Source: Chiloscyllium plagiosum (taxonomy: Eukaryota). Taken from it: a stretch of 64,000 nt of DNA. Under the pieces are notes generated by a model, which did no database searches, had not been told where the DNA came from, and saw nothing but the letters and a program-made list of their open reading frames with translations. Position 1 is the stretch's first letter; each line of letters opens with the position of its first letter. Where the stretch lies: contig NC_057756.1 in NCBI RefSeq assembly GCF_004010195.1, positions 9,000,320-9,064,319 of the forward strand. Reading direction: 5' to 3'. Shown here one piece after another: positions 5,227 through 63,295 of this stretch. A program made the position numbers and the translations under genes.

Positions 5227-5412
5227 AGAGCTGAAAATGTGTTGCTGGAAAAGTGCAGCAGGTCAGGCAGCATCCAAGGAGCAGGAGAATCGACGTTTCG
5301 GGCATAAGCCATTCTCGATTCTCCTGTTCCTTTGATGCTACCTGACCTGCTGCACTTTTCCAGCAACACATTTTCAGCTCTGATCTCCAGCATCTGCAGC
5401 CCTCACTTTCTC
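5227..5412. mobile_element. Fold-back Penelope-derived short element (family A)
   Basis: Arms gctgaaaatgtgttgctggaaaagtgcagcaggtcagg / cctgacctgctgcacttttccagcaacacattttcagc are inverted repeats. Confidence 0.8.
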
Positions 5413-5869
5413 AAATATTTTTCTCATCAACCTGGTGAGATATGTTATTACATATCTCTGGAGCAGGTGGGTCTTAAACCTGTTCCTCCATTTTCAGTGG
5501 CAGAGACATTACCACTGCATCACAAGAGGGCCCTTACTTGTTTTTTTTAATTTAACCTATTTTCCTAATCAACCTGTTCAGAGATGTTATTACACATCCC
5601 TAGTGAGCATGGTACTTAAACACAGGTGTCCTACATCAGTAAAGACACTATCACCACACAAGTCTCCTCACTTTTCTCTTTGCTTTCTGCCAGATTGACA
5701 TACAGCTCTTTCTTTCACATCTCCTCGGGACAGATATTTCGTTGCTTCACTTGTCATTTTAATCGACCTCCTTAGGTTTGCCAAATAAACTCTTCGGTCT
5801 TTAAATCTCTGCTTTCCTCCAGCCTGTCACAGATCTTCACTCTTGTTCTTTTTCCTCTTACACTTCTAA

Positions 5870-6655
5870 CTTTTTTTTTTATATTTCAAAAATATACTTT
5901 ATTCATATATATTTAATCTATACAATTGGACATGTCATCATTCTGTAAACATTCCATTTCTTTACGTATCGAAACAGGGTAATCATTCATATTCACAGGT
6001 TAGTGCGATTACATTGAGCTCAGACGCCAGCGGAGCCCAAATGACTGCGTGGGCCCCCTGTTCTTCATNNNNNNNNNNNNNNNNNNNNNNNNNNNNNNNN
6101 NNNNNNNNNNNNNNNNNNNNNNNNNNNNNNNNNNNNNNNNNNNNNNNNNNNNNNNNNNNNNNNNNNNNNNNNNNNNNNNNNNNNNNNNNNNNNNNNNNNN
6201 NNNNNNNNNNNNNNNNNNNNNNNNNNNNNNNNNNNNNNNNNNNNNNNNNNNNNNNNNNNNNNNNNNNNNNNNNNNNNNNNNNNNNNNNNNNNNNNNNNNN
6301 NNNNNNNNNNNNNNNNNNNNNNNNNNNNNNNNNNNNNNNNNNNNNNNNNNNNNNNNNNNNNNNNNNNNNNNNNNNNNNNNNNNNNNNNNNNNNNNNNNNN
6401 NNNNNNNNNNNNNNNNNNNNNNNNNNNNNNNNNNNNNNNNNNNNNNNNNNNNNNNNNNNNNNNNNNNNNNNNNNNNNNNNNNNNNNNNNNNNNNNNNNNN
6501 NNNNNNNNNNNNNNNNNNNNNNNNNNNNNNNNNNNNNNNNNNNNNNNNNNNNNNNNNNNNNNNNNNCTTGTTGGAAAGTTCTGGCGATGAGGCATTCAGC
6601 CAAATGGCTTTGGCAGTCTGCTCAGGGAACCGCTCGACAGGATCTGCCTCAGAAG
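5870..6655 (-). mobile_element. Tx1-clade LINE 3' fragment spanning the assembly gap
   Basis: Poly-T at 5871; both gap flanks match the copy at 17657-19225 (gagcccaaatgactg; cttgttggaaag.tctggcgatgaggcatt). Confidence 0.8.
6069..6566. other. Assembly gap (498 N)
   Basis: Run of N. Confidence 1.
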
Positions 6656-7195: not shown

Positions 7196-8166
7196 AATTT
7201 TTTGGGGGGAGGGAGGAGATATCACGTAAAGGAAGCTAAGAAAAAAAAACTAAAGAGGTAAATGTGTGATGTGTTGGAATAAGCATTGAATTTACTGGAA
7301 AGAAATGTTTGTTTTAAGGATGAATCATTGTCTGGAGTTGGGGCTTCCAAGAGGAAAGGGAACTGGACAATGGGAAATCCTCCCAAACCAACAACACCCA
7401 GCCTTCCTGAGAAGGACAATGCAGTGGGAGTGTGGAAAAACTATCACCTTCAAGCTCCTCTCAGAATCACACACTCACTGTCCCGCTTTGGAGAGATATA
7501 TTCCTTCATCGTCGTTGTGTCATAATCCTGGAACTCCCTCCCTAATGGCACAGTGGGAGCTAAGCCTGATGGAACTCAAGTGGTTTGAGCAGAAGGCCCC
7601 CACCATCTTCCCAAGCAGGACATAGGATGGACAATTAATGTGGGCCTTATCATTTAACATAACTCAAGACTTAATACAGCATTGTAATGATGAAGCATCT
7701 CCCTCCACTGCTGTACACTCTGAAGATTATGTTTTATACAGAAAGCTGTGGTTACATGGACAGCTCCTGTAGCATAACTAACAGCATCCTACCAGGAAAG
7801 CACAGATAGATACCATGACTGGTGGGCTAATAATTCTCCCATGGGGCACCTGTTCTCTGTTGACCAGAGTAGAGCTAACAAATGTGGAAGTCAAATGATG
7901 TCTGCTGAAAAAAGCCCCATCTTTGAGGTGATTCAATTTTTCTTTGGATGCAGTAACACAGCTAAGATAGCTTTATGGTGCAACGGATAGCATCTCTGTC
8001 TCTGAGCCAGGAGCTGTAGTTTCAAGTTCAACCCCAAGACTCATTGACCATGGAAGATGCATTCATAATGCAACCAAACAGGTCAACCTGCAAATTCTTC
8101 CAACATGGTGATGGAAGGTGGTGGAAGTAAGAGAGATTCCTGGTCAGCTGTGATTGATGTGGAGTG

Positions 8167-8385
8167 GTGATTAGATTAGAGCGGTGCTGGAAAAGCACAC
8201 CAGGTTCAGGCAGCATCCGAGGAGCAGGAAAATCAACGTCTCGGGCAGGATTCATTCCTGATGAAGGGCTCCTGCCCGAAATGTCGATCTTCCCGCTCTT
8301 CGGATGCTGCTTGACCTGCTGTGCTTTTCCAGCACCATTCTAATCTTGTCTCTCATCTCCAGCATCTGCAGTCCTCACTTTCGCC
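8167..8385. mobile_element. Fold-back Penelope-derived element (family A) with 13-bp TSD
   Basis: Inverted arms; TTGATGTGGAGTG is duplicated at 8154-8166 and 8386-8398. Confidence 0.85.
8252..8290 (+). ncRNA. Minimal type I hammerhead ribozyme motif
   Basis: CTGATGA(8258-8264)-A-GGGC-TCCT-GCCC-GAAA-T-GTC; short stem I (TC/GA). Confidence 0.7.
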
Positions 8386-8467
8386 TTGATGTGGAGTGAT
8401 GTCCTTCAAGCACAAACTTCTGGCTTCAGGCTAGTGACCTAAAGGGAAAAAAACATAAATAGACAGA

Positions 8468-8765
8468 GGGCGGCACGGTGGCTCAGTGGTTAGCACTGCT
8501 GCCTCACAGCGCTAGGAACCCAGGTTTGATTTTAGCCTCGGGTGGCTGTCTGTGTCGAGTTTGCACATTCTCCCTGTGTCTGCATGGGTTTTCTCCCACA
8601 GTCCAAAGATGTGCAGGTCAGGTGAGTTGGCCATGCTAAATTGCCCATAATGTTAGGTGCATTCATTAGAGGGAAATGAATCTGAGTGGGTTAGTCTTCG
8701 GCGGGTTGGTGTGGACTTGTTGGGCTGAAGGGCCTGTTTCAACACTGCAGGGAATCTAATCTAAA
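8468..8765 (+). mobile_element. HE1-type SINE, full length
   Basis: tRNA-like head ggcggcacggtggctcagtggttagcactgctgcctcacagcg with A/B boxes; aatct tail. Confidence 0.9.
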
Positions 8766-9199
8766 GTGTGCGATTCATTGGCCTCATATCTCCAGCTGAA
8801 GGAAGGATATAAAGAAAGAAGAAGGAAATAAGTCTAATGACTGTCCTGTGAATTTTCAAAGGTATCCTCACTAATGTAATAGTGGATAAAAAGTGAGTGT
8901 CTCATTGAAATTCTGAATGCACACACAAATCAGTTCAAACTGCATCTATGAGGAAGTTCAATGTATTTTCAACACCGAAACAAAGTGAATAGAAATTGGA
9001 TGGAATTTTCCATGTTGGGAATGAATTACAATGGGCAACAAAGGAATGTGTGTTTAAAATATTAAATAAGGATTAGCCAAATGAGCCTAACCACAGATAT
9101 AATGAAGTTCAAAATGGATAGAAACCCAATGGTGCACTCAATGGATTTGGGAATTAGAATCCCTAACATTGTTGATGGATCTGTGGAAATCTAAGCTGC

Positions 9200-10120
9200 T
9201 CTTTGGATTTGCACAGAGCCCTCCAGCCATTTCCAGTACAGTGCCAGCTGCATGTCATGTTGTCCTCTCATGTCTCCCACCCTGTGTCAGAGGGAGCCAA
9301 ACCCTGAAGGGCATAAAATGGAAGAGGACCACCTTCTGATTCTCCCAATCTTGCTCTGCTCACTGGAAGCACCTCGTCCTGCAAGAGAAAAGATAAAATG
9401 TCGATGTGTGTGCAGCCCTGTCATTGTCTGTAGTGCCTACCATAATTGAATAACTGGAAACATGGATTAGAATGATTTGGAGGTGCCGGTGTTGTACTGG
9501 GGTGGACAGAGTTAAAAATCACACAACACCAGGTTATAGTCCAACAGGTTTATTCAGAAGCACTAGCTTTTGGAGTGCTGCTCCTTCGTCAGGTAGTTAG
9601 AGCAGCGCTCTGAAAGCTAGTGCTTCCAAATAAACCTGTTGGACTATAACCTGGTGTTGTGTGATTTTTAATTATGGAAACATGGAGTCAGTGAGGGTTC
9701 AGGGTATTGTTAGCAGCATTAATAGGTGTGTGACGATAAGGTAGCTGTTATTTGAGAACACTGAGTATTCAGGAGTGTTGCTAGGTTTCTCGTGGGATGT
9801 GTGATGCATTGAGCACTGGGAGGCTATTCATGTTCTGGGTACGAGATACCATGGGCATACACATTTAACAACCTTAACAGCCAATGTGAGGTCATTTGAC
9901 TTCTTGTGATGCTGTTACCAAATCTTTGGGCCAGACATTAGGAATGAACTTCCCTGACCACCTGCTCCCATTCTATCAGAGTGTCTTCTGGGCCCCTGAA
10001 CTTCTCCTGTCCATTATCAGCACTAAGCCTCCAGCACAATATCTTTGCCCCTTTGTCTTCTCTCTTTGTTAACATTGGCATGCAATGCTATTCAGCAGCA
10101 GCCCCCTGAAATTCAGTGCA
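9200..10120 (-). mobile_element. Ancient Harbinger-type Myb/SANT DNA-binding gene relic
   Basis: Minus strand about 9880-10040 reads LEA...EWEQVVREVHS...IW*QHHKKSNDL, resembling the WEEVA...RTWQQCRKKFNDL motif; boundaries uncertain. Confidence 0.5.
9467..9674. mobile_element. Fold-back Penelope-derived element (family B) with 12-bp TSD
   Basis: Arms ttaaaaatcacacaacaccaggttatagtccaacaggtttatt and its inverse; TGGAAACATGGA at 9455-9466 and 9675-9686; minus-strand CTGACGA-AGGAG..CTCC-AAAA-GCTA core. Confidence 0.85.
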
Positions 10121-13820: not shown

Positions 13821-14044
13821 TGATCAAGATCAGATTCGAAAAGTGTGGAACTGGAAAGGCACAGCAGGTCAGGCATCTAACGAGCAGGAGAAGTGATGTT
13901 TCAGGCATAAGTGCTTCATCAGGAACATCAAAGAATCTTAGTAAAATTGGAATCAATGGGGATCAGATGAAAATTCTCCAGTTCCTGGTGAAGGGCTTTT
14001 GCCCGAAACGTCCATTTTCCTGCTCCTCGGATACTGCCTGACCT

Positions 14045-15060
14045 GCTGATTGATTGAAGTCACATCTGGCGTATATGAAGATGATTGTGGTTGTTGGAAG
14101 TCAGCCACCTCAGCTCCAAGGCATCTCTGCAGGAGTTCCTCAGGGCAGTGTCTTCTGTTCAACCATCTTCATCTGCTTCATCAATGACTTTCCCTCAGTC
14201 ATAAGGTCAGAAATGGGAATCTTCAATGATGATTGCACAATTTTGAGCACCATTTGCCCCTTAGATACTCAAGAGACCATGTTCAAATGCAACAACATCT
14301 GGACAATATCCAAGTTTGGACTGACAAGTAGCAGGTAACATTTGCATTAGATAAATGCCAGGCAATGACCATCTCCAATAGGAAACAATCTAAACACTGC
14401 CCCTTGTTCATTCAGTGGTGTTGCCATCACTGAAATCTATCAACATTCTGGGGGCTTGCCACTGACTCAAATGAAATTGCCATGGCTACAAGAGCAGGTC
14501 AGAGGCTAGGGGTACTGTGGTGAGTAATTCACGTCCTGACTCCCCAAAGCCTGTCCATCATCTACAAGGCATAAGTCATGAATGTGATGGTATATTCCCA
14601 TGCCTGAATGGGTGCAGCTCCAACAACATGCAAGAAACTTGACAGCATCCAGGACTGACATCATATCTACAAGCATCCAGTTGCTCAACCACTGACTCTT
14701 GGTAGTAGCCGTGTGTATCATCTCCAAGATGCACTGCAGGAATTCACTAAAGATCATGAGTTAGCACCTTCCAAACCAACAATCGCTTCCATTGAGAAGG
14801 ACAAGGGCAGCAGATACATGGGAAGACCACCCCATGCAAGTTACACTCCGAGCCAATCACCATCCTGACTTGGAAATATATTGCTGTTCCTTCACTGTCA
14901 CTGGGTTAAAATACTGGAATTCCCTCCCTAATGGCATTGTGGGTTGACAGCACATGGACTGCAGCGGTTCAAACTGGCAGCACACCAGTATCTTGTCAAG
15001 GATATCTAGGGACAGGCAATAAATGATGACCAACTCATGATGCCCACATCCCATGAGTAA
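14045..15060 (+). mobile_element. CR1-group LINE RT C-terminal part and 3' UTR
   Basis: PQGS and xDD motifs; 3' end gggacaggcaataaatg...cccacatcccatgagtaaa. Confidence 0.75.
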
Positions 15061-23732: not shown

Positions 23733-23913
23733 ATGTGGAGGAGCCAGTGTTGGACTGGGGTGGGCAAAACTAAAAATCGCACAACACCAAGTTACAGTCC
23801 AACAGGTTTATTTGGAGGTACTAGCTTTTGGAGCGAAGGAGCAGCACTCCAAAAGCTAGTGCCTCCAAATAAACCTGTTCAACTATAACCTGGTGTTGTG
23901 AGATTTTTAACTA
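23733..23913. mobile_element. Fold-back Penelope-derived element (family B) with 11-bp TSD
   Basis: Inverted arms; CTTCCAGAATG at 23722-23732 and 23914-23924. Confidence 0.85.
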
Positions 23914-25126: not shown

Positions 25127-25305
25127 GAGGATGAAATGAGGACAGCAGATGCTGGAGATCAGAGTCGAGAGTGTGATGCTGGAAAAACACAGCAGGTCAG
25201 ACAGCAACAGAGGAGCAGGAGAATCAACATTTCAGGCAAAAGCCCTTCTCCTGCTCCTCAGATGCTGACTGACCTGCTGTGCTTTTCCAGCACCCCATTC
25301 TCGAC
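25127..25305. mobile_element. Fold-back family A element with 12-bp TSD, inside an old plus-strand CR1 (about 24540-25370)
   Basis: ATATATTTCAAA at 25115-25126 and 25306-25317. Confidence 0.8.
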
Positions 25306-25639
25306 ATATATTTCAAAAAGTTGAGACAGACATGTTGGCTGAGTGGCCTCCTCCTGTACAGTATTATTCTAAATCTTTCTTAAAGATAGAAATAATCAGG
25401 CTGTGACAAACATGAGTATTATTAAGATGTAAATATTCTGCTAACGGCAAGTCCCAGCATGTTGCTGCCTCAGTTTTAGATATCTGAATCAACCTGTTAG
25501 GGATGTTATTACACACCTTTGGTGTAGGTGGGTCAGCTCTCCTGGCTCAGAAGGAGGGATGTTATTACTACACCACAATAGGTCCTGAAGCAACTGCTGA
25601 ATCATTGCTGAAACTAAGGATTAAACCTTTTGAATCTTC

Positions 25640-25840
25640 AGAGTCAAGATTAGAGTGGTGCTGGAAAAGCACAGCAGGTCAAGGAGCAGGAAAATCGATG
25701 TTTCAGGTCCTGATGAAGGGCTTTTGCCCGAACCGTCGATTTTCCTGCTCCTCAGAGGCTGCCTGACCTGCTGTGCTTTTCCAGCACCACTCTAATCTTG
25801 ACTCTGATCTCCAGCATCTGTAGTCCTCACTTACACCTTC
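25640..25840. mobile_element. Fold-back family A element with mutated hammerhead core
   Basis: CTGATGAAGGGCTTTTGCCCGAACCGTC at 25710-25737 between inverted arms. Confidence 0.8.
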
Positions 25841-41149: not shown

Positions 41150-42870
41150 CTGCAGCTTTTCCTCTCCATGCTGCTCTTTAAATGAACGCGAATGTGGAGA
41201 AAAACTGCATTTGTTTCCCTATACAATGGCAGGGTTATGAAATAGCTACAGATTTGTGAAGCCAGCCAGAGGAACCATGAGTTGAGAAGGAACTGTCTCA
41301 AAATGTATCCCACTCACAGAAAAGTTGAGAAAAAAAATTTGGCAGAAATTTTAAAAACTTTGAACCACTGGCATATTTTATTAATGAATGGTACATATTC
41401 ATTGTCAGGGGATCAAACTGAAAAAAAAAATCTACTGATCGTTTCTGAATGTCATTAAGTCAGCTCACAGAATCCTGTGAATTCACATAATTTATAGACA
41501 ATTTAATTAAAGATAGGATTGTGTGAGGTATAAGAGATGCTGCAGTCAGAGCACGTCTACTGAACAAGGAAAGAATTACAGCAGTTGACAAGTGCAGAAG
41601 TGTTGAGGTTGTGAACAGGCAGCTGGAGTACCTTCAAGGCAGGACAGGCCATGTGTTTCCACTTAATCATAGACACCACAGACAAAAAAAGCCCAGAACA
41701 ATCAGAGGTAAAGGGCAGGGCACAAATACTACTGAGGACATCATGAAAAGGAGAAGAAGGCATGTCGGACTTGGGGAAAGTAGCCTCCCCATTGTAAGAA
41801 GCTGAATTAATTTGTGCACTTGTATCTAACAAAAGGCAGCCCGATAAGTAGGCACAAATAGCCATTGAACAGACATTGACTGAAGATTCTGATGAAATTC
41901 CACTTTACCATAGAGCAAGTTGTTTCAGAGTGGATGAAGTGTGGAGCTGGAAAAAGCACAGCAGATCAAGCAGCATCAGAGGAGAAGGCGAGTTGATGTT
42001 TCAGGTCAGAACCCTACAAGTTGACTCCCCTTCTCTGTGGAGAGGCTGAACAGGCTGGGGCTGTTTTCCCTGGAGTGTCGGAGGCTGAGGGGTGACCTTA
42101 TAGAGGTTTATAAAATTATGAGGGGCATGGATAGGATAAATAGACAATGTCTTTTCCCTGGGGTCGGGGAGTCCAGAGCTAGAGGGCATAAGTTTAGGGT
42201 GAGAGGGGAAAGATATAAAAGAGTCCTAAGGGGCAACTTTTTCACACAGAGGGTGGTACGTATATGGAATGAGCTGCCAGAGGATGTGATGGAGGCTGGT
42301 ACAATTACAACATTTAAGAAGCATTTGGATGGGTATATGAATAGGAAGGGTTTGGAGGGATATGGGCCGGGTGCTGGCAGGTGGGACTAGATTGGGTTGG
42401 GATATCTGATCAGCATGGACGGATTGGACTGAAGGGTCTGTTTCCATGCTGTACATCTCTATGACTCTATGACTTGCTGTGCTTTGTCCAGCTCCACACT
42501 GACTATCCAGTGCCTGCAGTTCTCACTTTCTCCAACAAGTTGTTTCAGTCAAGTTGATAGATGCAACATGATTTGTGATTGTTTGAATGGGGATTGCAGA
42601 AGAAGAACATAAGTCAGCATGAAGTGTCAGACACTGATGTGCTCTGTAACTTAATGTACTTCACAGACCAGCCTGAAGTGATGCAACATGGTGACCCAAA
42701 GACATAGCCCTTGAAAGTGATATTGATGGCACCATGCTTATGCCAGGAGGACACATTACTCTACAAGCCCATTGTGACAATATTAACAAAGGTCTGGAGT
42801 TCCAGATTGTAGAGAGCAAGCCATTGCCACTGTTTCAATTGCAGCAAGACTGTAGATTGGAGTACAAAAC
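41150..42870 (+). mobile_element. Highly degenerate Gypsy-like gag/protease relic interrupted by younger elements
   Basis: ESCEF...LIKDRIV*GIRDAAVRARLL at about 41470-41565; zinc-knuckle-like remnant at about 41760-41825. Confidence 0.55.
41930..42535 (+). mobile_element. Family A fold-back element with a CR1 3' end (42040-42475) inside
   Basis: Arms gtggagctggaaaaagcacagca / tgctgtgctttgtccagctccac; TSD CAAGTTGTTTCAG on both sides. Confidence 0.8.
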
Positions 42871-43258
42871 CTTCCTCCACCACAACAAGGGTAGAGTCCC
42901 TAGTCCTCACATTCCACCCCACTAACCTCCAATCCAACAGATCAACATGCACCACTTCCGCCACCTGCAGTCTGACCCCACAACCAAAATGATATTTCTC
43001 TCCCCATCCCCATCCACATTTTGCAGGGACCATTCCCTCCACAGCTCCCTCGATGTGTCCACACTCCCCACCAATCCCTCCTCCACACCCAAAACCTTCC
43101 CCTGTGGCCACAGGAGGTGCAATTCCTGCCCCCACACCTCCCCTCTCACTTCCACCCAAAGCCTCAAAGAATCATTCCAGGTCCAGCAGAGATTCGCGTG
43201 CGTTTCCTCTAACCTGATTTATTGCATTCATTGCTCCCAGTGTGGTCTCCTCTACATA
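42870..43258 (+). mobile_element. Penelope-like element ORF fragment (linker and start of GIY-YIG endonuclease)
   Basis: RVP..HP...HFRHLQSDPTT...FPC..RRCNSCPH...FQVQQRFACVSSNLIYCIHCSQCGLLYI. Confidence 0.85.
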
Positions 43259-45437: not shown

Positions 45438-47654
45438 AGGATCCAGTGAGAACGGGAACAGGTAGACATTTATGTTAATGAAAAGTAGTATTGAAGAAAT
45501 CAATGGGATTAAAAGTTGACTAAACCCTAGGATCTAATAACCGTCACCCTAGAATGTTGAAAGAGATGATTACAGATATAGTGGAACCATTGGTAACCAC
45601 CTTGCATAATTCTATTAATTCTTCAATGGTGCCCACAGATTGGAAAACTCCAAATGTAATCCCAGCTCCATGTTATTTTACATTCATATTTCATTCTCAC
45701 CTTGTTTAAACCCTAATATTAATGAAAGGAGAGAGAAAACAGGGAACTACAGACCTGTTAGCCTGTCATCAGTTATAGGTAGAATACTAGAATTTATTAG
45801 AAACAATGTGATTACTAGGTGTTTAAAAATTAACTGTCTGATTGGGCAGAGTGAATCCTTCTTCTATAAAGGGGAAACCACGTTTGATAAACGTGATTGA
45901 GTTTTTTTGAGGATGTTTGTAGCAGCGTGAATAAGATGGACAGTGGACCTGATGTATTTTAATTTTCAGAAGTCTTTTGTTAAAGTGCCACACAGGAGGT
46001 TGGTGAACAACATTAAAACGGATGCCGCTGGAGATTCAAGATGGCGGCAGTCTGAAAAGTCTGCTGTGTTGGGTTGTGTGCCATACCCCGGGCAGGGTGG
46101 GCTCCTACCTCAACCCCCCACCCCCACATTAGCCACCCCTGAGGAAGATTTTTAGTATAAAGCAGGTACAGCACCTAAATTAGGATTTGGAGGCTCTGGA
46201 TATGAAACGAAGACGTCCAAAGGAAGGAGAGCTAGGGGAGTGCAGCAGGCAGAGCACTCCCCTGCTGTGTTGGGTGCACCCGCAGCTGCTGCCTCAACTC
46301 CCATGGCAGCGCCTTTAAGTTCAGTGGAGCAGCAGCATCTACTCGGGGAGTTCGCAAAACTCCATGAAAAAATCAAAAAAGCACTGGAGCCGATTACTGC
46401 CACACTGACAAAGGATAAGCAAGAGATCCGGGCGTTGGATCGGCACGTGGAAGCAGTCAAGCAAAGGACTGCGGCCTCGGAGACCCCGATGGTGAGCTCT
46501 GAGGGGCGGCTCCGAACCTTGGAAGGCCAGGTTCGGGCCTTGCTGGAACAAGTAGACGACCTCGAAAATTGAGGTCGGAGAAAAAATTTACAGGTCGCAG
46601 TTCTTCCGGAGAGTGAGGAGGGTGAGAATCTGGCTGAATTTCTTGAGAGGTGGCTCCTGGATTTGCTGGGGCTGGAGATTGTGTTGGGCTGGTTGAGTGT
46701 GGAGTGGGCCCAACGGATCGCGATACACAGGTCCGGGTCAGATTTGCACCCCACCCCGCCCAGTCCTAGTGCGACTCCAGCACTATAAAGAAAAGCAGTT
46801 AATAATAGAAACGTCCAGAAGACTGGGAAGAGATCCAAAGGGCTTTGGTATATAAAGGTTCAAGGATAATGATTTTGCAAGACTTTTCTTGGGCCATAAT
46901 TAAGAAAAGGAAGACTTTTGATGATGTAAAGAAAAAAATTAAGAGACTTGAATATTCAGTATTCTCTGAGGTACCTGACAATGCTACAGTTTAATTATGG
47001 GGGGGGGGGGTCTGTCTACAACTTTGACTTGGCAGATAAAGCAAAGAATTTTTTAACTCTCTGAAATAATAGATTTGACCGAGGGGGAAAGAGAAAAAGA
47101 TGTGTGCGGACAATGGCATAATCTTTTTTTTTATCTTCTCTTTCTTCGTTCTTTTCCCTTTTGTGGTCTCTTGCCTTATAGATGTGGTAGTGCTTTGGTG
47201 TAAAATCTGGTTTGTTTCATATTATATCTGTTTGGTAGTCATCTGTTGTTTTACTGTTCTGTTTTTCTGGGCGAAGGGTGGTTACTTCTTTGACGTAAAG
47301 ACATGTGAGGTTGTGATATGGAGGGGGAGGGGAGGGCGTCCATTGTTAACTTGCAGGAGCATAAATAACATGTCTTTTTCATTGGCTGTGTTTGGGGGTG
47401 TGGCCTTAACTGGAAGGTGCCAGGGTGGCTGTAAGGTTGGGAGTGAATGCCCCCTATGGGTGAGAGGGGAGATCGCAGGCTATAGTAGGCAGTCATGGCT
47501 AGTGATCTGTTCAGATGGTGCACCTGGAAAATAAAGGGGAGCCACTCCCCCATTAATAGGAGAAAGGTGCTTTCAAACATAGGAAAGAAAGCGTTGACAT
47601 TGCGCTGTTGCAAGAGACACATTTCACCAATAAGGAACATCTGAAGTTACAGCA

Positions 47655-48007
47655 TAGAGTCATAGAGATGTACAGCATAGAAACAGATCCCTCGGTCCAA
47701 CCCGTCCATGCCAACCAGATATCCCAACCCAATCTAGGCCCATTTGCCAGCACCTGGCCCATATGCAAGAAAACCCTTCCTATTCATATACCCATCCAGG
47801 TGCCTTTTAACTGTTTCAATTGTACCAGCCTCCAATACTTCCTCTGGCAGCTCATTACATACACGTACCACCCTCTGCATGAAATGTTTGCCCCTTAGGT
47901 CCCTTTTATATCTTTCCCCTCTCACCCTGAGCCTATGCCCTCTAGTTATGGACTCCCCCACCCCAAGGAAAAGACTTTGTCTATTTATCCTATCTGTGCC
48001 CCTCATG
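47655..48007 (-). mobile_element. CR1 3' end replacing much of the L1 endonuclease-linker region
   Basis: L1 reads QETH..HLKLQ before it and DQTGFIK directly after it. Confidence 0.85.
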
Positions 48008-48712
48008 ACCAGACAGGTTTCATCAAGAGCTGCAGCTCCTCCAACAACATCAGATGGTGTTGAATATAGTGCAGATATGTCAGCAGAGATTGATTCTGGG
48101 CTGGGTGCTCTCCCTGGATGCAGAAACGGCTTTTGTTCAGGTGGAATGGTCGTATCTCTTTGCTGTTCGAGATTGTTTTGGTCTGAGAGGGGCCTTTGCC
48201 AGATGGGTGGCAGTGTTACGTAGTGATCCCAAGGTGGCAGTTATCATGAATGGGGTCAAATCGAGCAACTTTAGTGTGGGGAGGGGCAGCCGACAGGGGT
48301 GTCCCCTGTCACCGCTGCTGTTTACTTTGGTCACTGAACTGTTGGCCAAGGCCATCCGAAAGGACCCTGAAATAGGTGGGAATTGGGGAACACAAAATTA
48401 CTCTTTATGCGGATATGTCCTTCTGTTTTTGGCTAATCCGGCAAAGTCTATACCTAGCTAAAACAAAAAGTTAACTTCATACATGCACAGAAATTAATGC
48501 TTCTGTGTAGCACAATTAAAAAGGATCAGTAAAGTATGTGATAAAATCCCTTTTGGTATATTTCTGAACATTTGGTAGTATGCGATGAGGTGCTGTGGAG
48601 CTATTTAATATTGATAGGTTACTAATGGGACTAGATTGGGTTGGGATATCCGGTCGGCATGGACGGGTTGGACCGAAGGGTCTGTTTCCATGCTGTACAT
48701 CTCTGTGACTCT

Positions 48713-48992: not shown

Positions 48993-49622
48993 CTAGCGTG
49001 ATATGAGTTCAGCTAGCTGGACGGCAGGTGTTGAAGACAACAAACACGCTGGTCTCCTGAACTTTTCCAATCGTAACTTCATATCGTCTCCAGCCAGAAC
49101 ATAAGCAAGTGGGTTAATGATGCTGTTCAAACTGGCCATGACCCTGGCCACTTGGTAACCCAGATAAATATTTTTGAATGCACTGGCCCTGGAGTTGGAA
49201 ATACCTCGAGATCAGGTTGGCGTTTCTCAGGACATGGTAAGGAGCGAAGCAAAGGGATAACAAGAAAGTGACAATCAGCATGAGCTGAAGGCAGCTATCT
49301 GGCAAGCCTTGCTCCACGTTCTTACTGTGGATCAGAACATCACAACGGGGCTGTAACAGCCAACAATGATGGGGAAAGGGAGGAAGAAAGTGATCACAGC
49401 CATGTACTCCCGCGTCTCCCTTATCGTAACACCGTCGTAGCGTTCAGTGCCATTGAGATCGGCCTTGGTTAAATTTGGATCGGCCAAGGTTTGGGCTAGA
49501 ACCAGCCCTCGGACCAGAACGCTGATGAGCAGTGAGTGGTGGCGATTCCAGCTGCCCAGCACCTTCATGGGGTGTACTGTGCCCAGGTACCGTTGCACAC
49601 TGATACAAGTGAGGAATCCAAG
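48993..49622 (-). pseudogene. P2Y purinoceptor-like (P2RY1-related) class A GPCR fragment, TM3 to C-terminus, two frameshifts
   Basis: LGFLTCISVQRYLGTVHP (TM3/DRY-like), FFLPFPIIVGCY (TM5), LCFAPYHVLRNANL (TM6 HxxR), YQVARVMASLNSIINPLAYVLAGD (TM7 NPxxY). Confidence 0.9.
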
Positions 49623-51134
49623 CCTCGCAGGTGAGATGTCCCCTCATCAACTTACTGTTGATGGATAAGATGAGATCTGTGGCTGAGCACTGTGAGAGCC
49701 CGATTGGCATAAATCAGGTGAAAACATGGAGGATAATGTGGCAGGGTGAGGGCAATTTGCTTAAGGCTTCGCTGTTTACCCCATTTGGGGGAGCCCCAGG
49801 GGTCAATGGACTCCAGCTTCAGAGCATGGAAGGGTAAGGGAATCTCCTGACTGGGAGATTTATTCGAGGGAGAGATCTTGATGTCTTTCAACCAATTAAG
49901 TCAGAAATATAGAATTCCTAATAGGGACCTTTTCCGATACTTCCAGGTTAGGGATCATAGACAGAAGAAGACTACACCCTTCGCCCAGCCATACAAGTCA
50001 GTTATAGAGAGGAATACTTTGATGTGGGAGCATCTCTTGGTTAGTACCATATATTACCTACAGAGAGGGAATGCCTTGGGGGATATGGAGAGACTCCAGG
50101 GATCTGGAATCAGGAGTTAGGGGGAAGAAATCTCATTGGAAGCATGGGAGGATATATAGGGGAAATGTAAAGGAAATTTCTATGTGCAATAAGGCATAAG
50201 CGATGCAATTCAAGATCCTTCACAGGGCCCATATGGCGCCAGAGAGGTTAGCAAAGTTTAACAGGACACCCCCCACCCAGATCTTCTCCGAAATGCCCCG
50301 AATATAAAATCAGCATAGGCACCCTCACACATTGCTTTTGGTCCTGTTACAAGATTTGCAGATACTGGGCTGCCATAGTGAATGAGCTGGAGAAGATCCT
50401 GGGGAATTGAAGTTAAGGAGGATCCGGTATCCCTTCTTTTGGGATTACCGAATCTGTCCTCTCTGGATGAGCACAGGAGAGGTTATTTAACATTCTTACA
50501 CACTGTGTGGGGAAGAACATTGCAATGAATTGGATGTTAGAAAATCCTCCAGGTCTTGTGGGGTGACGCACACTTGTGATGGTGCACCTCCCCCATGGTG
50601 CAGCATAGAACAGAAATGGCAGCATAGATACAGACCTATCGGTGGATCTGATTAGGCTTTTATATATAGCTGCGAAGGCCGTATATGGTGGTCCGAGGGC
50701 CCCGGGGGTAGGGAAGGGGGGAGACCTAGTAAACGTGGGCATAAATAACTGTTGCTCCCATGGATGGGAGCTTCAGTGCAGGTGCGATAAGTGGAGCAAT
50801 GCAATGTAGTGCAATGTAATGTAATTTAATTTTATTGGATTGTAATTTAGTTTAATACAATTTCATTTAATTTGAGTTTATTTTAATTTGGGGTGTTAAG
50901 TTAAGTAAATATGAGACGATTGTACCTTGAAGAGTAGTAGGCAGATTATTGTTAACGTTATGAAAATGTGATATTATATCTACTTTTCTGTACTTCTGTA
51001 CTTTTATAACTTTTCGGTTCTTTTTGTAAAGGAGTATATATATATATATAAATAAATGCATGACACTAGAGGTAAGATATGAGTAATGTTTGAGGATTGG
51101 TTAGTGGGCTGAAAGCAGAGAGATAGAATAAATG

Positions 51135-52217: not shown

Positions 52218-52422
52218 GAATTCTGGATTAGTGGTGCTGGAAGAGCACAGCAGTTCAGGCAGCATCCAAGGAGCAGCGAAATCGATGTTTTGGGCAAAAG
52301 CCCTTCTTTGCCCGAAACGTCGATTTCACTGCTCCTTGGATGCTGCCTGAACTGCTGTGCTCTTCCAGCACCATTAATCCAGAATCTGGTTTCCAGCATC
52401 TGCAGTCATTGTTTTTACCTCA
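52218..52422. mobile_element. Fold-back family A element
   Basis: Near-perfect inverted arms ggattagtggtgctggaagagcacagcagttcaggcagcatccaaggagc; flanking CATTGCTTT(G/A)GAATT duplicated. Confidence 0.85.
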
Positions 52423-52577: not shown

Positions 52578-53085
52578 AGAGGAAGGGTCCTGGGGAAGGG
52601 TTACACCTGAAACGTCAAATTATCCACCTCCTGGTGCTGCCTGCCTTGCTGTGTTGCCCCAGCCTGCTGCCTGTCCCTCCTGATGCTGCCTGGCTTGCTG
52701 TGTTCTCCTAGGGAAGGGTCCTGGGGAAGGGTTACACCTGAAACGTCAAATTATCCACCTCCTGGTGCTGCCTGCCTTGCTGTGTTGCCCCAGCCTCCTG
52801 CCTGTCCCTCCTGATGCTGCCTGGCTTGCTGTATTTTTCCAGCCTCCTGCCTGTTCCTCCTGATGCTGCCTGGCTTGCTGTGTTCTCCTAGCCTCCTGCT
52901 TGTCCCTCCTGATGCTGCCTGGCTTGCTGCATTTTTCCAGCCTCCTGCCTGTCCAACCTGATGCTGCCTGGCTTTCTGTGATCTTCCAGCCTCCTGCCCG
53001 TCCCTCCTGGTGCTGCCTGGCTTGCTGTGTTCTTCCAGCCTCCTGCCTGGGGCTATTTCAGATCCTAGCATTTGCAGTTTTTTTT
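52578..53085 (+). repeat. Approx. 49-bp minisatellite derived from a Penelope-type tail, with an approx. 131-bp higher-order duplication
   Basis: gatgctgcctggcttgctgt...cagcctcctgcctgtccctcct repeated at 52813, 52862, 52911 and 52960. Confidence 0.9.
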
Positions 53086-54029
53086 GTCTTTTAACATCTA
53101 AGCAGCAGCCTTGCACCATCAATGTAGTTGTCTCGTTTTTGCAATTGTACCATCCATGTAACTGCCACACTTCTGCAATAAAGAATACATTGTGTAGTTC
53201 CCGTCCCCGGTTTTTCCTATTCCCAGGGGAAACGAGTACCGAACAGTAACTTTAACTGCAAACTTCATGTCAGTGGGAAAACTGAGTTAGTCTTTTTACA
53301 TTAACTGTTAGACCTGGTGTATTTGACCCCGCAGTGAAATCAAGCATTTGAATAATCATCTGACAATACTGAATGGGATGTGTTGGCCATGATCAAAATG
53401 AGGCAGTAGAGGGAACTGCAGATGCTAGAGATTAGGGTCAAGATTAGAGTGGGGCTGCCTGACCTGCTGTGCCTTTGCAGCACCACTCTAATCTTGACCA
53501 GGATCAAAATGAGTCTTTTCGTCTATTGCAAGTGTCAGTCCCGAAATCTCCACTGACACCATTAAGGTGAAGTGTATAAACGTCCTCATCAGTGACCCTT
53601 CCCTCTGTGTGGTGTGTTGTTAAATTTTTCCATTGATCGGCAGTTTTCATGTTTATACACAAAAGATTTTGATAAGATCTGGTCATTGGACGGGGCTAAT
53701 CTGGCGTAGAATGTTGTCATTTTTTTTGGTGAAAACTGATTATTTTACCTTTGGTATCTATAGTGGCAAAAGAGAAACTAGGTCCCTATTATAGAAAGTG
53801 ATGCTTGTAGATGGGCTGTGCAGATGAGGGTTTATTAACTATTTGACCTGAGGAGGCTGGTACAATTACAGCATTTAAAAGGCATCTCGATGGGTATATG
53901 AATAGGCCGGGTGCTGGCAGGTGGGACTAGATTAGGTTGGGATATCAGGTTGGCATGGAGGAGTTGGACCGAAAGGTCTGTTTCCATGCTGTACATTTAT
54001 GACTCCATGCCAACGCAGTTTTAAAAAAA

Positions 54030-54619: not shown

Positions 54620-56520
54620 GTAATAGGAGTAGGCCATTTGGCCCATCGGACCTGCTCCTCCATTCATTAAGATCATGGCTGATCTGTTCTCATCTATCCT
54701 GATGAAGAGCTTATGCTTGAATGTTGATTCTCCTGCTCCTCGGATGCTGTCTGACTGGCTGTGCTTTTCCAGCACCACACTCTTGACTCTGATCTCTCCA
54801 TCGTCTCAGCTCCTGCTACCTGCATTTTGCCCGTAACCCTTAATTCCCCTACCATGCAAAAACCCATTCAACTGTGTTTTGAATATATTTAATGAAGCTG
54901 CCTCTATTGCTTCCTTGGGCAGGAAGTTCCACTGATTCACTACTCTTTGGGAAAAGCAGTTCCTCCTCATCTCTGTCCTAAATCTACTCTCCCTAATCTT
55001 GAGGCCATGTCCCCTCATCCTAGTCTCACCCACCAGTGAAAACAACCTGCCTGCCTCTATCTTATCTCTCCCTTTCATAATTTTCTGTTTCTAAAAGTAC
55101 CCTCTCATTCTTCTAAACTTTAGCAAGTACAGTCCCAGGCAGCTCAACCTCTCCTCAATGGGTAACCCCCTCAACTCCGGAATTAACCTGGTGAAACCTC
55201 TCTGCACCGCCTCCAAAGCCAGTATATCCTTCCTTAAGTAAGGAGACCAGAACTGCACACACAATACTCCAGGTACTGCCTCACTAACTCCTTGTACAGA
55301 ATGTCCCTGCTCTTAAATTCAATCCTTCTAGCAATGAAAACCAGTGTGCTGTTTGTCTTCAAATTTCTGCAAATTCACCTGCAAATCAAATTTCTGTGAT
55401 TTATGTATGAGTACTCCTAAGTCCCTCTGCACAACATCATGCTGCAATCTTTTACCATTTAAATAATACTCTGACCTACTATTTGTACTCCCAGAGTGGA
55501 TAACCTCACATTTACCACCATTGTATTCCATCTGCCAGACCCTTGCCCACTCACGTAACCTATCTAAATCTCTCTGCAGACCCTCCACATCCTCTGCACA
55601 GTTTGCCTTTCCACTCAATTTAGTGTCATCAGCAAACCTGGATATGGTACACTCGCTTTCCTCTTCCAAGCCATTAAAAATAGGATGAACAGTTGTAGGC
55701 CCAACACCAACCTCTGTGGCACCCCACCCACCACTGATGTCCAACAGAAAAACACCTATTTACCCCAACTCTCTATTTTCTATTGGTTAACCAATCCTCT
55801 CTCCATGCTAGTACATTCCCCACACTTCATGCATTCTTATCTTATGGATGACACTTTTATGCGGCACCTTATTGAATGCCTTCTGGAAATCAAGTCTACA
55901 ACATCTACCTGTTCCCCTCCAATCACCATGCTTGTTACATCCTCAAGAACTCCAGTAAGTTTGTCAAACACAACCTTCTCTTCTTGAATCCATGCTGCAT
56001 CTGCCTGATGGAACCCTTTCCATCCAGGTGTCTCACTATTTCTTCATTAATGTTAGCCTTCAGTATTTTTCCAACTACAGATGTTCAACTGACTGGCCTA
56101 TAATTACCTGCCTTTTATCTACACCCTTTTTTAAACAGCGGTGTAACATTCGCTGTCTTCCAGTCTGCTGGGACCTGCCCGGAGACAACTGAATTTTGGT
56201 AAATCACCACTAATGCACCTACTATCACTTCCACCATTTCTTTCAGCATCCTGGACCAGGGGATCTATCTACCTTTTGACCCACAAGTTTGCTCAACACT
56301 ACCCCTTTAGTGATAACAATTGAATCGAGGTCCTCACCTTCCATCGGATCCTTAATATCATTCTTTTGCAAGTTAGATACATCTTCCATTGTTAAGACCG
56401 ACACAAAATATTCAAGGCCTTGGCCATTTCAGAATTACACAATGTTAAATCCCCTTTCTCATCCTGCAAGGGACCTACGTCCACTTTAGCCACTCTATTC
56501 CATTTTATATATTTATAACA
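54620..56520 (-). mobile_element. CR1 ORF2 fragment with a nested family A piece (54698-54800)
   Basis: SRFADDTKLSG, QRDLGV, MRGHGLKI. Confidence 0.88.
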
Positions 56521-58529: not shown

Positions 58530-59352
58530 CAGTCAGCATAAATTGTCCAAGGGAAATCATGCCTCATGAACTTGATTGAGTTTTTGAGGACTGATGAGGG
58601 CAGAGCAGTGGTCATGAACTATATGGACTTCAGTAAGGCTTTGAACAATGTTCCTGATGGAAGACTGGTTAGCAAGGTTAGATTACGTGGAATAAAGGGA
58701 GAACTAGCCAGTTGGTTAAAGCACTGGCTCATGGATAGAAAACAGAAGGTGGTGGTGGAGGATTTCTGTGACTGGAGACCTGTGACCAGTGGAGTGCCAC
58801 AAAGATTGGTCCCGGGTCCACTGTTTTTTGTCAGTTATATAAATGATTTGGATATGAACATGCGGTATGTGGTTAGTAAGTTTGTAGATGATACCAAAAT
58901 TGGAGGTGTAGTGGACAGTGAAGGTTACCTAAGAGTACAATGGCATCTTGATCAGATGAATCAATGGGCTGAGTGGCAGATGGAGTTTAATTTGGACAAA
59001 TGTGAGGTGCTGCGTTTTGGAAAGGCAAATCAGGGCAAGACTTGTACACTTAATGGTAAGGTCCTGGGGAGAGTTGCTGAACCAAGAGACCTTGGAGTTC
59101 ATAGTTCCTTGAAAGTAGAGTCGCAGGTTGATAGGATAGTGAAGAAAGTGTTTGGTAGCTTGCCTTTATTGATCAGTGCATATAGTATAGGAGTTGGGAG
59201 TTCATGGTGCGGCTGTTCAAGACATTGGTTAGGCCACTGTTGGGAGTACTGTGTGCAATTCTGGTATGCTGTGAAACTTGAAAGAGTTCAGAAAAGATTC
59301 ACAAGGATGTTGCCAAGGTTGGAAGATTTGAGCTGTAAGGAGAGGTTGTACA
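58530..59352 (+). mobile_element. CR1 ORF2 RT fragment
   Basis: YMDFSKA, SGVPQ, SKFVDDTKIGG, RVQKRFTRMLP. Confidence 0.9.
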
Positions 59353-60148
59353 GGATGGTACGGTGGCTCAGTGCTTAGCACTGTTGCCTCACAGCACCAG
59401 GGATCCAGGTTCAAATGACAACACCCTCAGAGCCCTCCACTATCACCTGATGAAGGAGCATCGCTCCTAAAGCTAGTGTGCTTCCAATGAAACCTGTTGG
59501 ACTATAACCTGGTGGTGTGTGATTTTTAACTTTGTACCTTGAAGACATTCTCTTCCTCTCTCTACAAGAATCTCAGTGAGTCTCTCTCTCTCTCACTCAC
59601 TCACTGCAACCCCCAGGTCATCTCCTTTGCTCCGAAGTTCTTCAACATGTACTGACCAGCTCAGCACCAGGAGTTGGGAGTTCATGTGCGGCTGTTCAAG
59701 ACATTGGTTAGGCCACTGTTGGGAGTACTGTGTGCAATTCTGGTATGCTGTGAAACTTGAAAGAGTTCAGAAAAGATTCACAAGGATGTTGCCAAGACTG
59801 GAAGATTTGAGGTGTAGGGAGAGGTTGTACAGGATGGTACGGTGGCTCAGTGCTTAGCACTGTTGCCTCACAGCACCAGGGATCCAGGTTCAAATGACAA
59901 CACCCTCAGAGCCCTCCATTATCACCTGATGAAGGAGCATCGCTCCTAAAGCTAGTGTGCTTCCAATGAAACCTGTTGGACTATAACCTGGTGGTGTGTG
60001 ATTTTTAACTTTGTACCTTGAAGACATTCTCTTCCTCTCTCTACAAGAATCTCAGTGAGTCTCTCTCTCTCTCACTCACTCACTGCAACCCCCAGGTCAT
60101 CTCCTTTGCTCCGAAGTTCTTCAACATGTACTGACCAGCTCAGCACCA
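59189..60148 (+). repeat. Near-perfect approx. 480-bp tandem duplication (CR1 piece + SINE head + family B tail)
   Basis: aggagttgggagttcatg at 59189 and 59669; both copies end tgaccagctcagcacc. Confidence 0.95.
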
Positions 60149-60149
60149 C

Positions 60150-60385
60150 CCTCACTACCTGTCGGACCTGCCAATCTTCCTTCCCACATTTCCGCTCCAC
60201 CCTCCTCTCCGACCTATCACCTTTACCCCACCTCCAGTCACCTATTGCACTCTTTGCTACCTTCTCCCCCCCCCCCCCCCCCCCCCTGCCTCATTCCCGA
60301 TGAAGGGCATTTGCCCGAAACGTCGATTTTCCTGCTTCTCGGATGCTGCCTGACCTGCTGTGCTTTTCCAGCACCACTGTGATCT
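60150..60385 (+). mobile_element. Penelope-type 3' region with family A tail
   Basis: C-rich tract followed by cattcccgatgaagggcatttgcccgaaacgtcgatttt. Confidence 0.75.
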
Positions 60386-60459
60386 TTGCTCTAAGACTGG
60401 TGACTCCGAACATGTTCTGGGTCAGTGATGAATATTTACTGTTTGAGGAAATGAAGGGA

Positions 60460-60665: not shown

Positions 60666-62619
60666 AGTAAACACCCAAAAATTCCTTGCAACAAAATCCT
60701 TATTTATCTAAACGAAAAACTTCAAGCTAAAAAGGAATCTTATTTAAATTTGTAAACGATATTTCTGTTTCATGTTTTAAGAAATGACGCTAAGTAATTT
60801 ATTTATCCGCGCACTTTGAACGGAATACCAAATAATTTTACTGCTCCTCGGATGCTGCCTGAATTGCTGTGCTCTTCCAGCACCACTAATCCCGAACCTG
60901 GTTTCCAGCATCTGCAGTCATTGTTTTTAACCTACCAATTGATTGCCGAATGTGTATTTGATTTTGGAAGAGTCCAAGGCAGTAGTAAACAGGCGGGTGG
61001 CGCTGGGTTCTCTGATTTTTTTTTGGTAACAGGAAATGTAAAACTGATGGCGCTAGTTTCAGCTGTAGATAGAAAATGGAGGTGGTGGATTGGGGGATTG
61101 TGCTTTACAAAGCAAATATATTTAATATAGAATATAAAATATCAAACAACCAGCTGATGAAGAAGCAGCGCTCCGAGAGATAGTGTTTCCAAATAAACCT
61201 GTTGGACTATAGCCTGATGTTATGTAATTTTTAACTTGACAAAATATAGCTTTAACTGAAAACTCTATGTCAATCCGAAATAGAGATTATAACTGTCAAA
61301 CACTCACTATTTGGACAATCTGATGTGTTTAAGCCTGTATTTGTACAGTGTCTCCTATATTTTAAATGCCTGAAATTTAATAAGATAGGGAGCCCTTCAT
61401 TCCGGATGAAGGGCTTTTGCCCGAAACGTCGATTTTCCTGCACCTCTGATGCTGCCTGAACTGCTGTGCTTTTCCCGCACCACTCCAATCTAGAATCTGA
61501 CCTCTAGCATCTGCAGTGCTCACTTATGCCTAGCGTACATCTATATAACGTACATCTGTACACCATTACAAGTTTCACTGACGAATCGTGCCCTAATGGA
61601 GTCTGTAAACATTGGTTCCGCTTTGTTAAAGTCAGTTCTTTGGGTCGGTCTGAATTTAAACTCGAAGTCGGTAAGGTATTGAGAGAACTCACATTGGCGA
61701 ATGTAGTGGGAAGGGGATATTTAAATGGAGTTTATCCAGGCGGCACATCATAACAGGTTCAGGTCTCGCTGCATTGACCACACTCCGTGGACTGGACGGG
61801 AATGAATTCCGAGCGGAATGTGAGGCTGAGATTGTCCGACCCGAGTGATTATGTTACCGTTTAGATCTGAACCTGTATTTGGAAGACGCCAAGAATGATC
61901 TTTTTGATTATATAACGTACAAAGAAGGAAATGGGCTGATTTTAAGCTGAAAGATTTAATTGGAGTGGTATTTGGAAACTATCACTGAGCTGGATGTATC
62001 TGAAGAATTCGGTGAGAGACCCTCTCCCCGGGATCCCCTGTCTGTGCTTTATCTATAAATATTTCCCTTAATTGGAATCTGTTTGTATGAGCACGGCAAG
62101 ATTTTTGGCAAGACCTGATCATTGGTCAGGACGAATCTGCTGTCCGTTCTGATGCTGTTTTTGTCCAGACTGATTGTGAGAATTGACAGGTTGAGATTTT
62201 ACCTGAATGAGTCTACTTCAGTGTAGAAAGCTGAGATTTTCAGAAGTGGATTCTGATTGTGATCTGAACATTTTTACTTTATTCAGTTGAGAGTGGGAAG
62301 CAAGCTAAAGAGATACCCAATGATTTATGTGAAAATTTGAATTCTCCAATTAAGCAATTTTACTCTTTTATACTCTCCATATTCCAGAGTCAATATTAAC
62401 CGTTCCGTTCCGAAAAGAGAAATTTAGTGAGTGTATGGTTGAATTTAACTAACTTTTGGTGGGAAATGAACAATGGACAACTAAACAGTAAAATGTTCAA
62501 TTTTATTTCAGAATTCCATTCAGCTGAACATTGTTTTAGACTGGCAGGAATGGTCAGATTATTCCCATTTATATCCTGTGCAAGGATTTATCAAATCCTA
62601 ATCCAATATTTTGAATTGG

Positions 62620-63295
62620 AGCTGTCGATGTTGAATTGGGGTGGACAAGATTAAAAATTACACAACACCATAGATGGTTACATCTATAACCATAGGTTAT
62701 AGCTGTAACAGGGTTATTTGGAAGCATTAGCTTTCCAGCTGCTGCCTCTTCATCATGGTTATGGAACATGACCATGCGACACAGAATCTATAGCAAAGGC
62801 GTGACAATGCCATGGAGTTGCAATGATATATTAATCTACATTAATTTTTTAAAAACCCACAACATCAGGTATTAATTCTTAAACAAATTTGGATTAAGTC
62901 TGTCGTCTTTTAGAATGGGATATGGTGGTTTGGGTTCTTCAGTATGCAAATCTCAGGACTCCTTCTAATTTATATTCTCCAGGTGGCATCAATTTATCTA
63001 ACAATGTGTAATTTCAGCTCAGACTATGTGTGAAGGGAAAGACTTAACCAATGTTGAGTCAGTTCTATTTCTAAAGTGGGGCTGACAGAATCTTCCATGG
63101 ATTTCTGCAGGTTTTGAGCAAAATAATTCTGCAAATACAAATTCACCCAATAAACGTCTGTGTGTGTGGATGCAATTCAGAGACACTGGGAGCGTAAATC
63201 CATGTAAGATTCTGTCAACCCCACTTTATAAATAGAACTGACTCAACATTGGTACAGTTTTTAGCTTCACACGTGGAATGCACTGTCTGAGTGTA
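62620..63295 (-). mobile_element. Old Penelope-type (family B) element with inverted segment
   Basis: Family B tail at 62620-62760; inverted repeat 63047-63104 / 63196-63253. Confidence 0.65.

Follow-up and report, generated by a model that had tools for sequence, protein, structure and literature searches.

A fold-back insertion with a minimal hammerhead motif in a shark genome, probably a stub left by an endonuclease-bearing Penelope-like element

Penelope-like elements (PLEs) of metazoans carry minimal hammerhead ribozymes (min-HHR) which, in the cited part of the survey describing them, showed no cleavage as monomers and low cleavage as dimers (PMC4209133). The insertion units of endonuclease-bearing PLEs (Penelope/Poseidon, Neptune) are described as containing an inverted 5'-truncated pLTR, an optional 30-40-bp tail and a target-site duplication (TSD) (PMC8557442, PMC3846280, PMC11167929), and the one-sided 30-40-bp tail with an adjacent inverted truncated copy is given as a hallmark of PLEs (PMC8557442, PMC3846280). 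For the anole element PAc, the protein was reported to cut and extend both target strands, reverse transcription to begin at two internal RNA sites bracketing the tail, and the hammerhead to cleave only with protein and to be dispensable for insertion in vitro; RNA-seq gave no RNA end peaks in the sections of that report cited here (PMC11167929). Penelope is listed among the repeats of the whale shark genome (PMC8455134), and a stem-loop of two opposed repeats was noted in the skate (PMC2746220). Animal non-LTR retrozymes have been reported in one chondrichthyan genome (PMC7229834; bioRxiv 10.64898/2026.07.22.740005) and are defined by head-to-tail tandem arrays (PMC7229834; bioRxiv 10.64898/2026.07.22.740005; PMC6155905). 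All these sources are quoted for the portions cited. Our literature search returned no paper on a shark PLE hammerhead family; Repbase, Dfam and paper supplements, which may already list the family, lay outside its scope.

We analysed a window of 64,000 nucleotides of Chiloscyllium plagiosum DNA, in which the first-pass annotation had placed a hammerhead core at 8258-8285 inside a fold-back with inverted arms and a 13-bp TSD. Both observations were confirmed. The core CTGATGA-A-GGGC(TCCT)GCCC-GAAA-T-GTC lies at exactly these positions, and the element around it (8170-8385, 216 bp) is a fold-back between TSDs of 13 exact base pairs (8154-8166 / 8386-8398), which can be lengthened to 16 bp with one mismatch (8154-8169 / 8386-8401). 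The TSD score of 13 compares with a null maximum of 8 among 400 random window pairs. The element folds as a single long hairpin (-130.7 kcal/mol, z -14.2), an energy equalled by none of 200 shuffles. Its parts are listed below, with arm positions numbered from the core C3 as +1.

8154..8169, plus strand: left TSD, 13 bp exact, 16 bp with one mismatch
8170..8250, minus strand: inverted short arm, pLTR-like, about +13/+16 to +92
8251..8385, plus strand: sense long arm, about -7 to +128
8256..8287, plus strand: candidate minimal type I hammerhead, predicted cut after 8285
8350..8385, plus strand: one-sided 'tail' of 36 nt, not in the inverted arm
8386..8401, plus strand: right TSD, 13 bp exact, 16 bp with one mismatch

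The inverted short arm lacks the tail, and its hammerhead core is incomplete. Nearby, an assembly gap of 498 N occupies 6069-6566, and a SINE-like repeat lies at 8470-8700, 70 nt to the right of the element, with similar sequence in L002; this repeat may be of the V-SINE/HE1 type.

The focal motif consists of a 2-bp stem I, CUGAUGA, a bulged A, a 4-bp stem II, GAAA and GUC, with no intramolecular stem III. The features of minimal hammerheads are present, namely the conserved core (CUGANGA, GAAA, UH), stem II and, just ahead of that stem, a bulged base. We scanned both strands of the window with a descriptor that required the core, at least 4 bp in stem II and self-complementary stem III letters. 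This search for minimal type I hammerheads gave one perfect-core match, that at 8258-8285, compared with none in each of 10 first-order Markov control sequences; with one core mismatch allowed, there were nine matches in the window and zero to one per control. No hammerhead model of Rfam matched: nothing in the window reached the gathering score, and a search of the element and its surroundings at E<=10 gave only chance miRNA/lncRNA hairpin matches. The repeat family of the focal copy (family 1) had been credited with a palindromic ACGT stem III. This was correct for the family (ACGU) and not for the focal copy itself, whose AUGU contains a wobble: it has U for C at 15.2, and thus a weakened predicted dimer helix III (self-duplex +1.2 kcal/mol compared with -3.1 for ACGU).

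Twelve motifs were compared across families, three from family 1, three from a second family (family 2, described below) and six from metagenome loci, two of them near-identical. These six were all that a metagenome motif scan yielded; they belong to other fish-like families, with no family-1 copy among them, and scans of viral contigs and prokaryote genomes gave no motif. The search pattern left stem I free, whereas the outer stem II pairs and GAAACGTC were part of it. Pair 1 of stem I was kept in 11 of the 12 motifs (C-G or T-A) and pair 2 also in 11 (T-A, A-T or G-C), with no longer version of stem I in family 1, and the stem III letters were ACGU in family 1 and AGCU in family 2. The predicted stems I and III covary across families. 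Within family 1, mismatches amounted to 4/76 in the core and 40/374 downstream (p=0.2; seven arms, picked for covering the core). A core no better conserved than its flank had been named beforehand as a point against the motif, but this result is expected for neutrally decaying copies; within-family conservation is uninformative on the motif, and it is the covariation across families that supports it. Core positions were free of variants among the 40 variants listed, from reads selected for 85% likeness.

The missing Rfam match, the stem I of only 2 bp and the lack of excess core conservation in the family (p=0.2) would all suit a hammerhead match arising by chance inside an unrelated SINE or LINE tail. 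Such an origin is scarcely credible given the ten controls without a perfect core, the compensatory changes across families and the same motif following a PLE ORF at another locus (see below). ARAGORN also found no tRNA head in 7900-8800, a weak test for decayed heads; on this result a tRNA-derived SINE was rejected, in agreement with the initial view that the repeat is not a classical SINE. The sequence comparison thus supports the focal motif as a PLE-type minimal type I hammerhead.

The focal insertion is old. In a second species, two runs yielded contigs that lead from unique sequence on the left into the adjoining arm, with 17 differing letters and 7 gaps over about 625, and in one of the two runs a contig spans the tail into the right flank; both runs carry the insertion, and no empty-site allele was seen in them. 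Since the insertion is at the same site in the second species, it predates the species split. Of 130 positions in the focal long arm, 10 depart from the window majority, and the two focal arms disagree with each other at 10 of 74. In the modelled fold of the whole element, G12, A13, A15.1, G16.2 and U16.1 are paired to the left arm with probabilities of 0.96-1.0, and forcing the hammerhead fold costs 23.3 kcal/mol, compared with 5.5 for the sense arm alone; the catalytic core is predicted to be occluded in the focal hairpin. One polyA single-cell RNA run, read to ~2%, gave 2,319 reads on the repeat, from both strands, with only seven at a likeness of at least 99%; in this library, which is ill-suited to small or circular RNA, the unique flanks drew no reads, and neither read starts nor read ends formed peaks. 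The focal copy is probably an old, inert stub, and its intact core is likely to be a chance survival.

Family 1 occupies ~14 loci in 63.5 kb of the window, and its depth in DNA reads exceeds that of the flanks ~10^5-fold. All five further copies listed in the first-pass annotation are present, each with a different core lesion as claimed (A6>G, A15.1>C, a deletion at G12, U4>C and U4>G), with two positions off by one (13985 and 61403, not 13984 and 61402). The family-1 copies besides the focal one are the following.

5228..5413, no strand assigned: fold-back, ends +128/+92, apex +27/+6; 16-bp TSD with 2 mismatches
13976..14048, plus strand: family-1 arm, core at 13985 (A6>G)
25130..25305, no strand assigned: fold-back, ends +127/+90, apex +6/+31; 15-bp TSD with 1 mismatch
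25638..25838, no strand assigned: fold-back, core at 25710 (A15.1>C), ends +129/+98; TSD not found
41929..42535, no strand assigned: family-1-related fold-back, ends about +128/+93; 13-bp exact TSD
52223..52420, no strand assigned: fold-back, ends +129/+89, apex +14/+6; 15-bp TSD with 1 mismatch
53403..53494, no strand assigned: fold-back without hammerhead, ends +127/+89, apex +73/+48; TSD present
54697..54810, plus strand: family-1 arm, core at 54699 (decayed)
60145..60394, plus strand: family-1 copy, core at 60297 (U4>C); 5' boundary placed visually
61391..61531, plus strand: family-1 long arm, core at 61403 (U4>G); small palindromic inversion at the 5' end

The fold-back at 41929..42535 is divided by a later LINE-type insertion, and its short end (+93) is the aligned end plus unaligned bases. 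The copy at 60145..60394 is the only one in family 1 with a long (~150 nt) pyrimidine-rich, C-rich 5' extension. Family 2, which carries the GAAAGCUA hammerhead with a 5-bp stem II and a palindromic stem III, has the same fold-back, tail and TSD anatomy as family 1, as seen in two insertions.

9469..9674, no strand assigned: family-2 fold-back, one-sided tail; 14-bp TSD with 1 mismatch
23733..23913, no strand assigned: family-2 fold-back, one-sided tail; 11-bp exact TSD (13 bp with 1 mismatch)

The first of these carries its GAAAGCUA-type hammerhead at 9592-9564 on the minus strand, and further family-2 sites lie at 59447, 59926, 61154 and 62640-62760. A local tandem duplication of 479 bp at 59220-60150 takes in the end of a LINE, a piece of a SINE and one family-2 arm. 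A third hammerhead-like family is found at 52578-53084, where two 131-nt tandem units (52590/52721), with the core mutated in both, are followed by a ~49-nt subrepeat array and a tail-like end, with a 14-bp TSD containing one mismatch.

The ends of the fold-backs fall into two classes. A TSD was present in six of seven family-1 and both family-2 fold-backs, and all eight TSD scores (10-13) were above the null maximum, although some of the real search windows were slightly larger than those of the null. Each of these eight (six family-1, two family-2) has one long and one short end, at +127 to +129 and +89 to +93 in family 1 (+128/+92 in the focal fold-back) and at about +122 to +124 and about +81 to +83 in family 2, leaving a tail of ~36-41 nt on one side in 8/8. 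In the DNA reads, loose ends behind 8337 and 8386 are family-wide, corresponding to the two 3' end classes. The apexes, by contrast, vary: they differ in all six family-1 fold-backs mapped (+27/+6, -7/+13, +6/+31, +14/+6, +73/+48 and -2/+18). In whole-genome contigs, where depth is not copy number, the focal apex (8248) had a depth of 1,318 compared with 1.06 million at 8240, eight bases off, or about 0.1% of the family depth; 275 different joints were found, and the 15 listed each had low depth. Arms of the same insertion have non-majority letters in common at 13 of 359 positions, compared with 14 of 1,874 for arms of different insertions, but the two arms of the focal insertion have no derived letters in common with each other in the overlap tested, nor do the two arms of the 25638..25838 insertion. 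Since the apexes vary while both arms of an insertion carry the same subfamily letters, the hairpin likely formed afresh with every insertion instead of descending from a hairpin master.

These junctions bear on the proposal that the fold-back is itself the mobile unit, a hairpin akin to a MITE or a retrozyme that cleaves itself, forms a circle and is then copied again, which is close to the ribozyme-driven non-autonomous element or retrozyme first suggested for this locus. The strong hairpin, the TSDs and the intact focal core would fit it, as would the one tandem pair of hammerhead-like units in family 3, but in that pair the core is mutated in both units. With different apexes in 6/6, asymmetric ends in place of terminal inverted repeats, a focal core predicted to be occluded, and no RNA ends in the one polyA run described above, the proposal is largely refuted and we regard it as very improbable. 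Family-1 copies in the window are solo or head to head; they form no tandem arrays, which define animal retrozymes (PMC7229834, in the part cited). Two named candidates were rejected in the same comparison: a MITE or fold-back DNA transposon, as the ends are asymmetric by 36-40 nt and the apexes differ among copies, and an animal retrozyme, as head-to-tail units each with a complete hammerhead are absent in family 1.

The link to Penelope made in the first-pass annotation held up, on the minimal type I motif, the head-to-head arms, the one-sided tail and the long TSD. A protein remnant of such an element is present in the window.

42926..43258, plus strand: decayed PLE ORF fragment, Cys linker and GIY-YIG start; tblastn E 2e-5, HMM 1e-7

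This remnant surfaced only with a profile of 10 PLE proteins, which matched it at 42953-43258, and it scored 0.92-0.95 against Atlas GIY-YIG / HTH_animal clusters; no hammerhead arm is joined to it, and its 3' side is cut by another repeat. Among the 150 longest ORFs of the window (218 in all), Pfam recognised pieces of LINE-type RT, esterase and zf-RVT and no GIY-YIG. Elsewhere in the window, a coiled-coil ORF followed by RT fragments at 46156-48458 (plus strand) is likely a decayed L1/Tx1-type LINE, and a frameshifted rhodopsin-family GPCR fragment at 49117-49643 (minus strand; Pfam 7tm_1 E 1e-4, below the cut-off) is probably a pseudogene.

A near-complete decayed PLE, with RT, HTH_animal, Cys linker, GIY-YIG and a downstream hammerhead, was found in a metagenome record (L001:57-2327) that is probably host DNA. 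The motif there is of the same type as the focal one and lies ~570 nt downstream of the RT / HTH_animal / GIY-YIG remnants, with a 5-bp stem I; it belongs to a family other than family 1. The RT part of this record matches 10 proteins, all with PF26215 HTH_animal, from which the profile mentioned above was made, and the C-terminal part matches GIY-YIG clusters at 0.94-0.95 (family on 22-50% of members); Pfam found nothing on three fragments of the record, and its GIY-YIG fragment had no match to longer proteins. Protein searches with two frames of the 60145..60394 5' extension gave no fused PLE protein, only three spurious repeat proteins. Because no family-1 arm physically joined to a PLE ORF was found in the window, the PLE assignment rests on the anatomy together with this locus of a different family.

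Taken together, we put at roughly three in four the probability that 8170-8385 represents two head-to-head pLTR copies from an endonuclease-bearing PLE, left as an old, probably inert stub with an ordinary minimal hammerhead. In the series of events that we infer, from the enzyme and the template to the priming order and any cleavage, a GIY-YIG endonuclease would nick both target strands about 13-16 nt apart, by analogy with the PAc biochemistry (PMC11167929, in the part cited). Reverse transcriptase would then prime at each nick on one of two internal RNA sites, at about +90 or about +128; the two short cDNAs would end at variable points in or near the hammerhead and be joined head to head, so that the resulting hairpin would be tailed on one side. 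Hammerhead activity in the parent RNA would require both a dimer and help from protein. The occurrence of one long and one short end in 8/8 is in keeping with the two RT start sites of PLEs and with their one-sided tail of 30-40 bp; against this reading, the fold-back at 25638..25838 has its short end at +98 and no TSD was found for it.

The 5' ends of the arms are informative on the template. Seventeen of 20 (values entered by hand) lie at -10 to +31, no more than 40 nt from the core, which is tighter than random truncation of a multi-kb RNA would suggest, and in three DNA runs the loose-end consensus past the inverted arm is common to the runs over 22 letters, as far as about -7, and differs beyond. 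The clustering and the consensus end fit a short discrete template better than random truncation, and such a template could be a non-autonomous RNA or could represent the 5' end of a transcript from a PLE. If the former, the copies would derive from a short (~135-nt) non-autonomous RNA starting a few bases upstream of the hammerhead and mobilised by a PLE in trans, with the fold-back still built at insertion; this is the version of the first-pass proposal that can best be defended. Besides the arm ends and the consensus, this would suit the very high abundance given above and the finding that only one of 14 loci reaches far upstream, and non-autonomous PLE derivatives are known (PMC8557442, in the part cited). 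However, some contigs, as well as the 60145..60394 copy, run upstream into a C-rich, 3'UTR-like tract, and an autonomous RNA would produce this clustering too, through run-off to a transcript start in the pLTR or through stalling of RT at the hammerhead. We rate the short non-autonomous RNA as the less likely source. Three arms (at 5315, 25246 and 60835) have starts of +27 to +31, on or close to the cut predicted after +28, and three other family-1 arms start at +6; these numbers are too few to test.

A more speculative idea, which we hold to be quite doubtful, is that the hammerhead serves as a pairing signal more than as a cutter. Two PLE RNAs would be joined via the palindromic stem III in a dimeric RT-endonuclease particle; each would prime one of the two nicked target strands, in fixed order (one at the long site, the other at the short), and stop at the ribozyme. 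If true, this would explain both the long and short ends in 8/8 and the position of the 17/20 arm starts. By itself the focal insertion is unremarkable, another dead member of a PLE-type repeat family that is very abundant. With thousands of stubs, however, end and junction statistics could test how PLE inverted units form and whether a minimal hammerhead cuts in vivo, two questions left open by the cited papers in the portions used here; a genome-wide 5'-end peak at +29 would be a fossil record of hammerhead cleavage in vivo.

The retrozymes known from animals resemble the focal element in being non-coding, in carrying a type I hammerhead and in their relation to PLEs (PMC7229834; bioRxiv 10.64898/2026.07.22.740005, each in the part cited). 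They are, however, head-to-tail tandem units with circular RNA, whereas the focal element is a lone insertion of head-to-head arms, has a minimal core and gave no locus-specific reads in the one polyA run. The resemblance to the min-HHR of PLEs is closer (PMC4209133, in the part covered, in which cartilaginous fish are not named): both have a type I core with an unpaired base between 9 and 10.1 and G10.1-C11.1, a palindromic 15.2-16.2 without helix III, and copies that are mostly solo and dispersed, with some close pairs on opposite strands. Stem I has 2 bp here, as in D. virilis, compared with 4-5 bp in the Schistosoma families, and the 4-bp stem II here is unlike that of the PLE min-HHR. As an insertion, the focal element differs from the published units of endonuclease-bearing PLEs in consisting of pLTR ends alone, with no ORF between, and in the very high density of the family; its TSDs and those of its relatives are 11-16 bp, compared with 8-10 bp in rotifer PLE copies. 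It agrees with these units, as far as the cited portions describe them, in the head-to-head arms, the one-sided tail of 36-41 nt, the TSD and the two 3' end classes. Thus the element is most likely a further copy of an already described kind, a PLE insertion unit with a minimal hammerhead.
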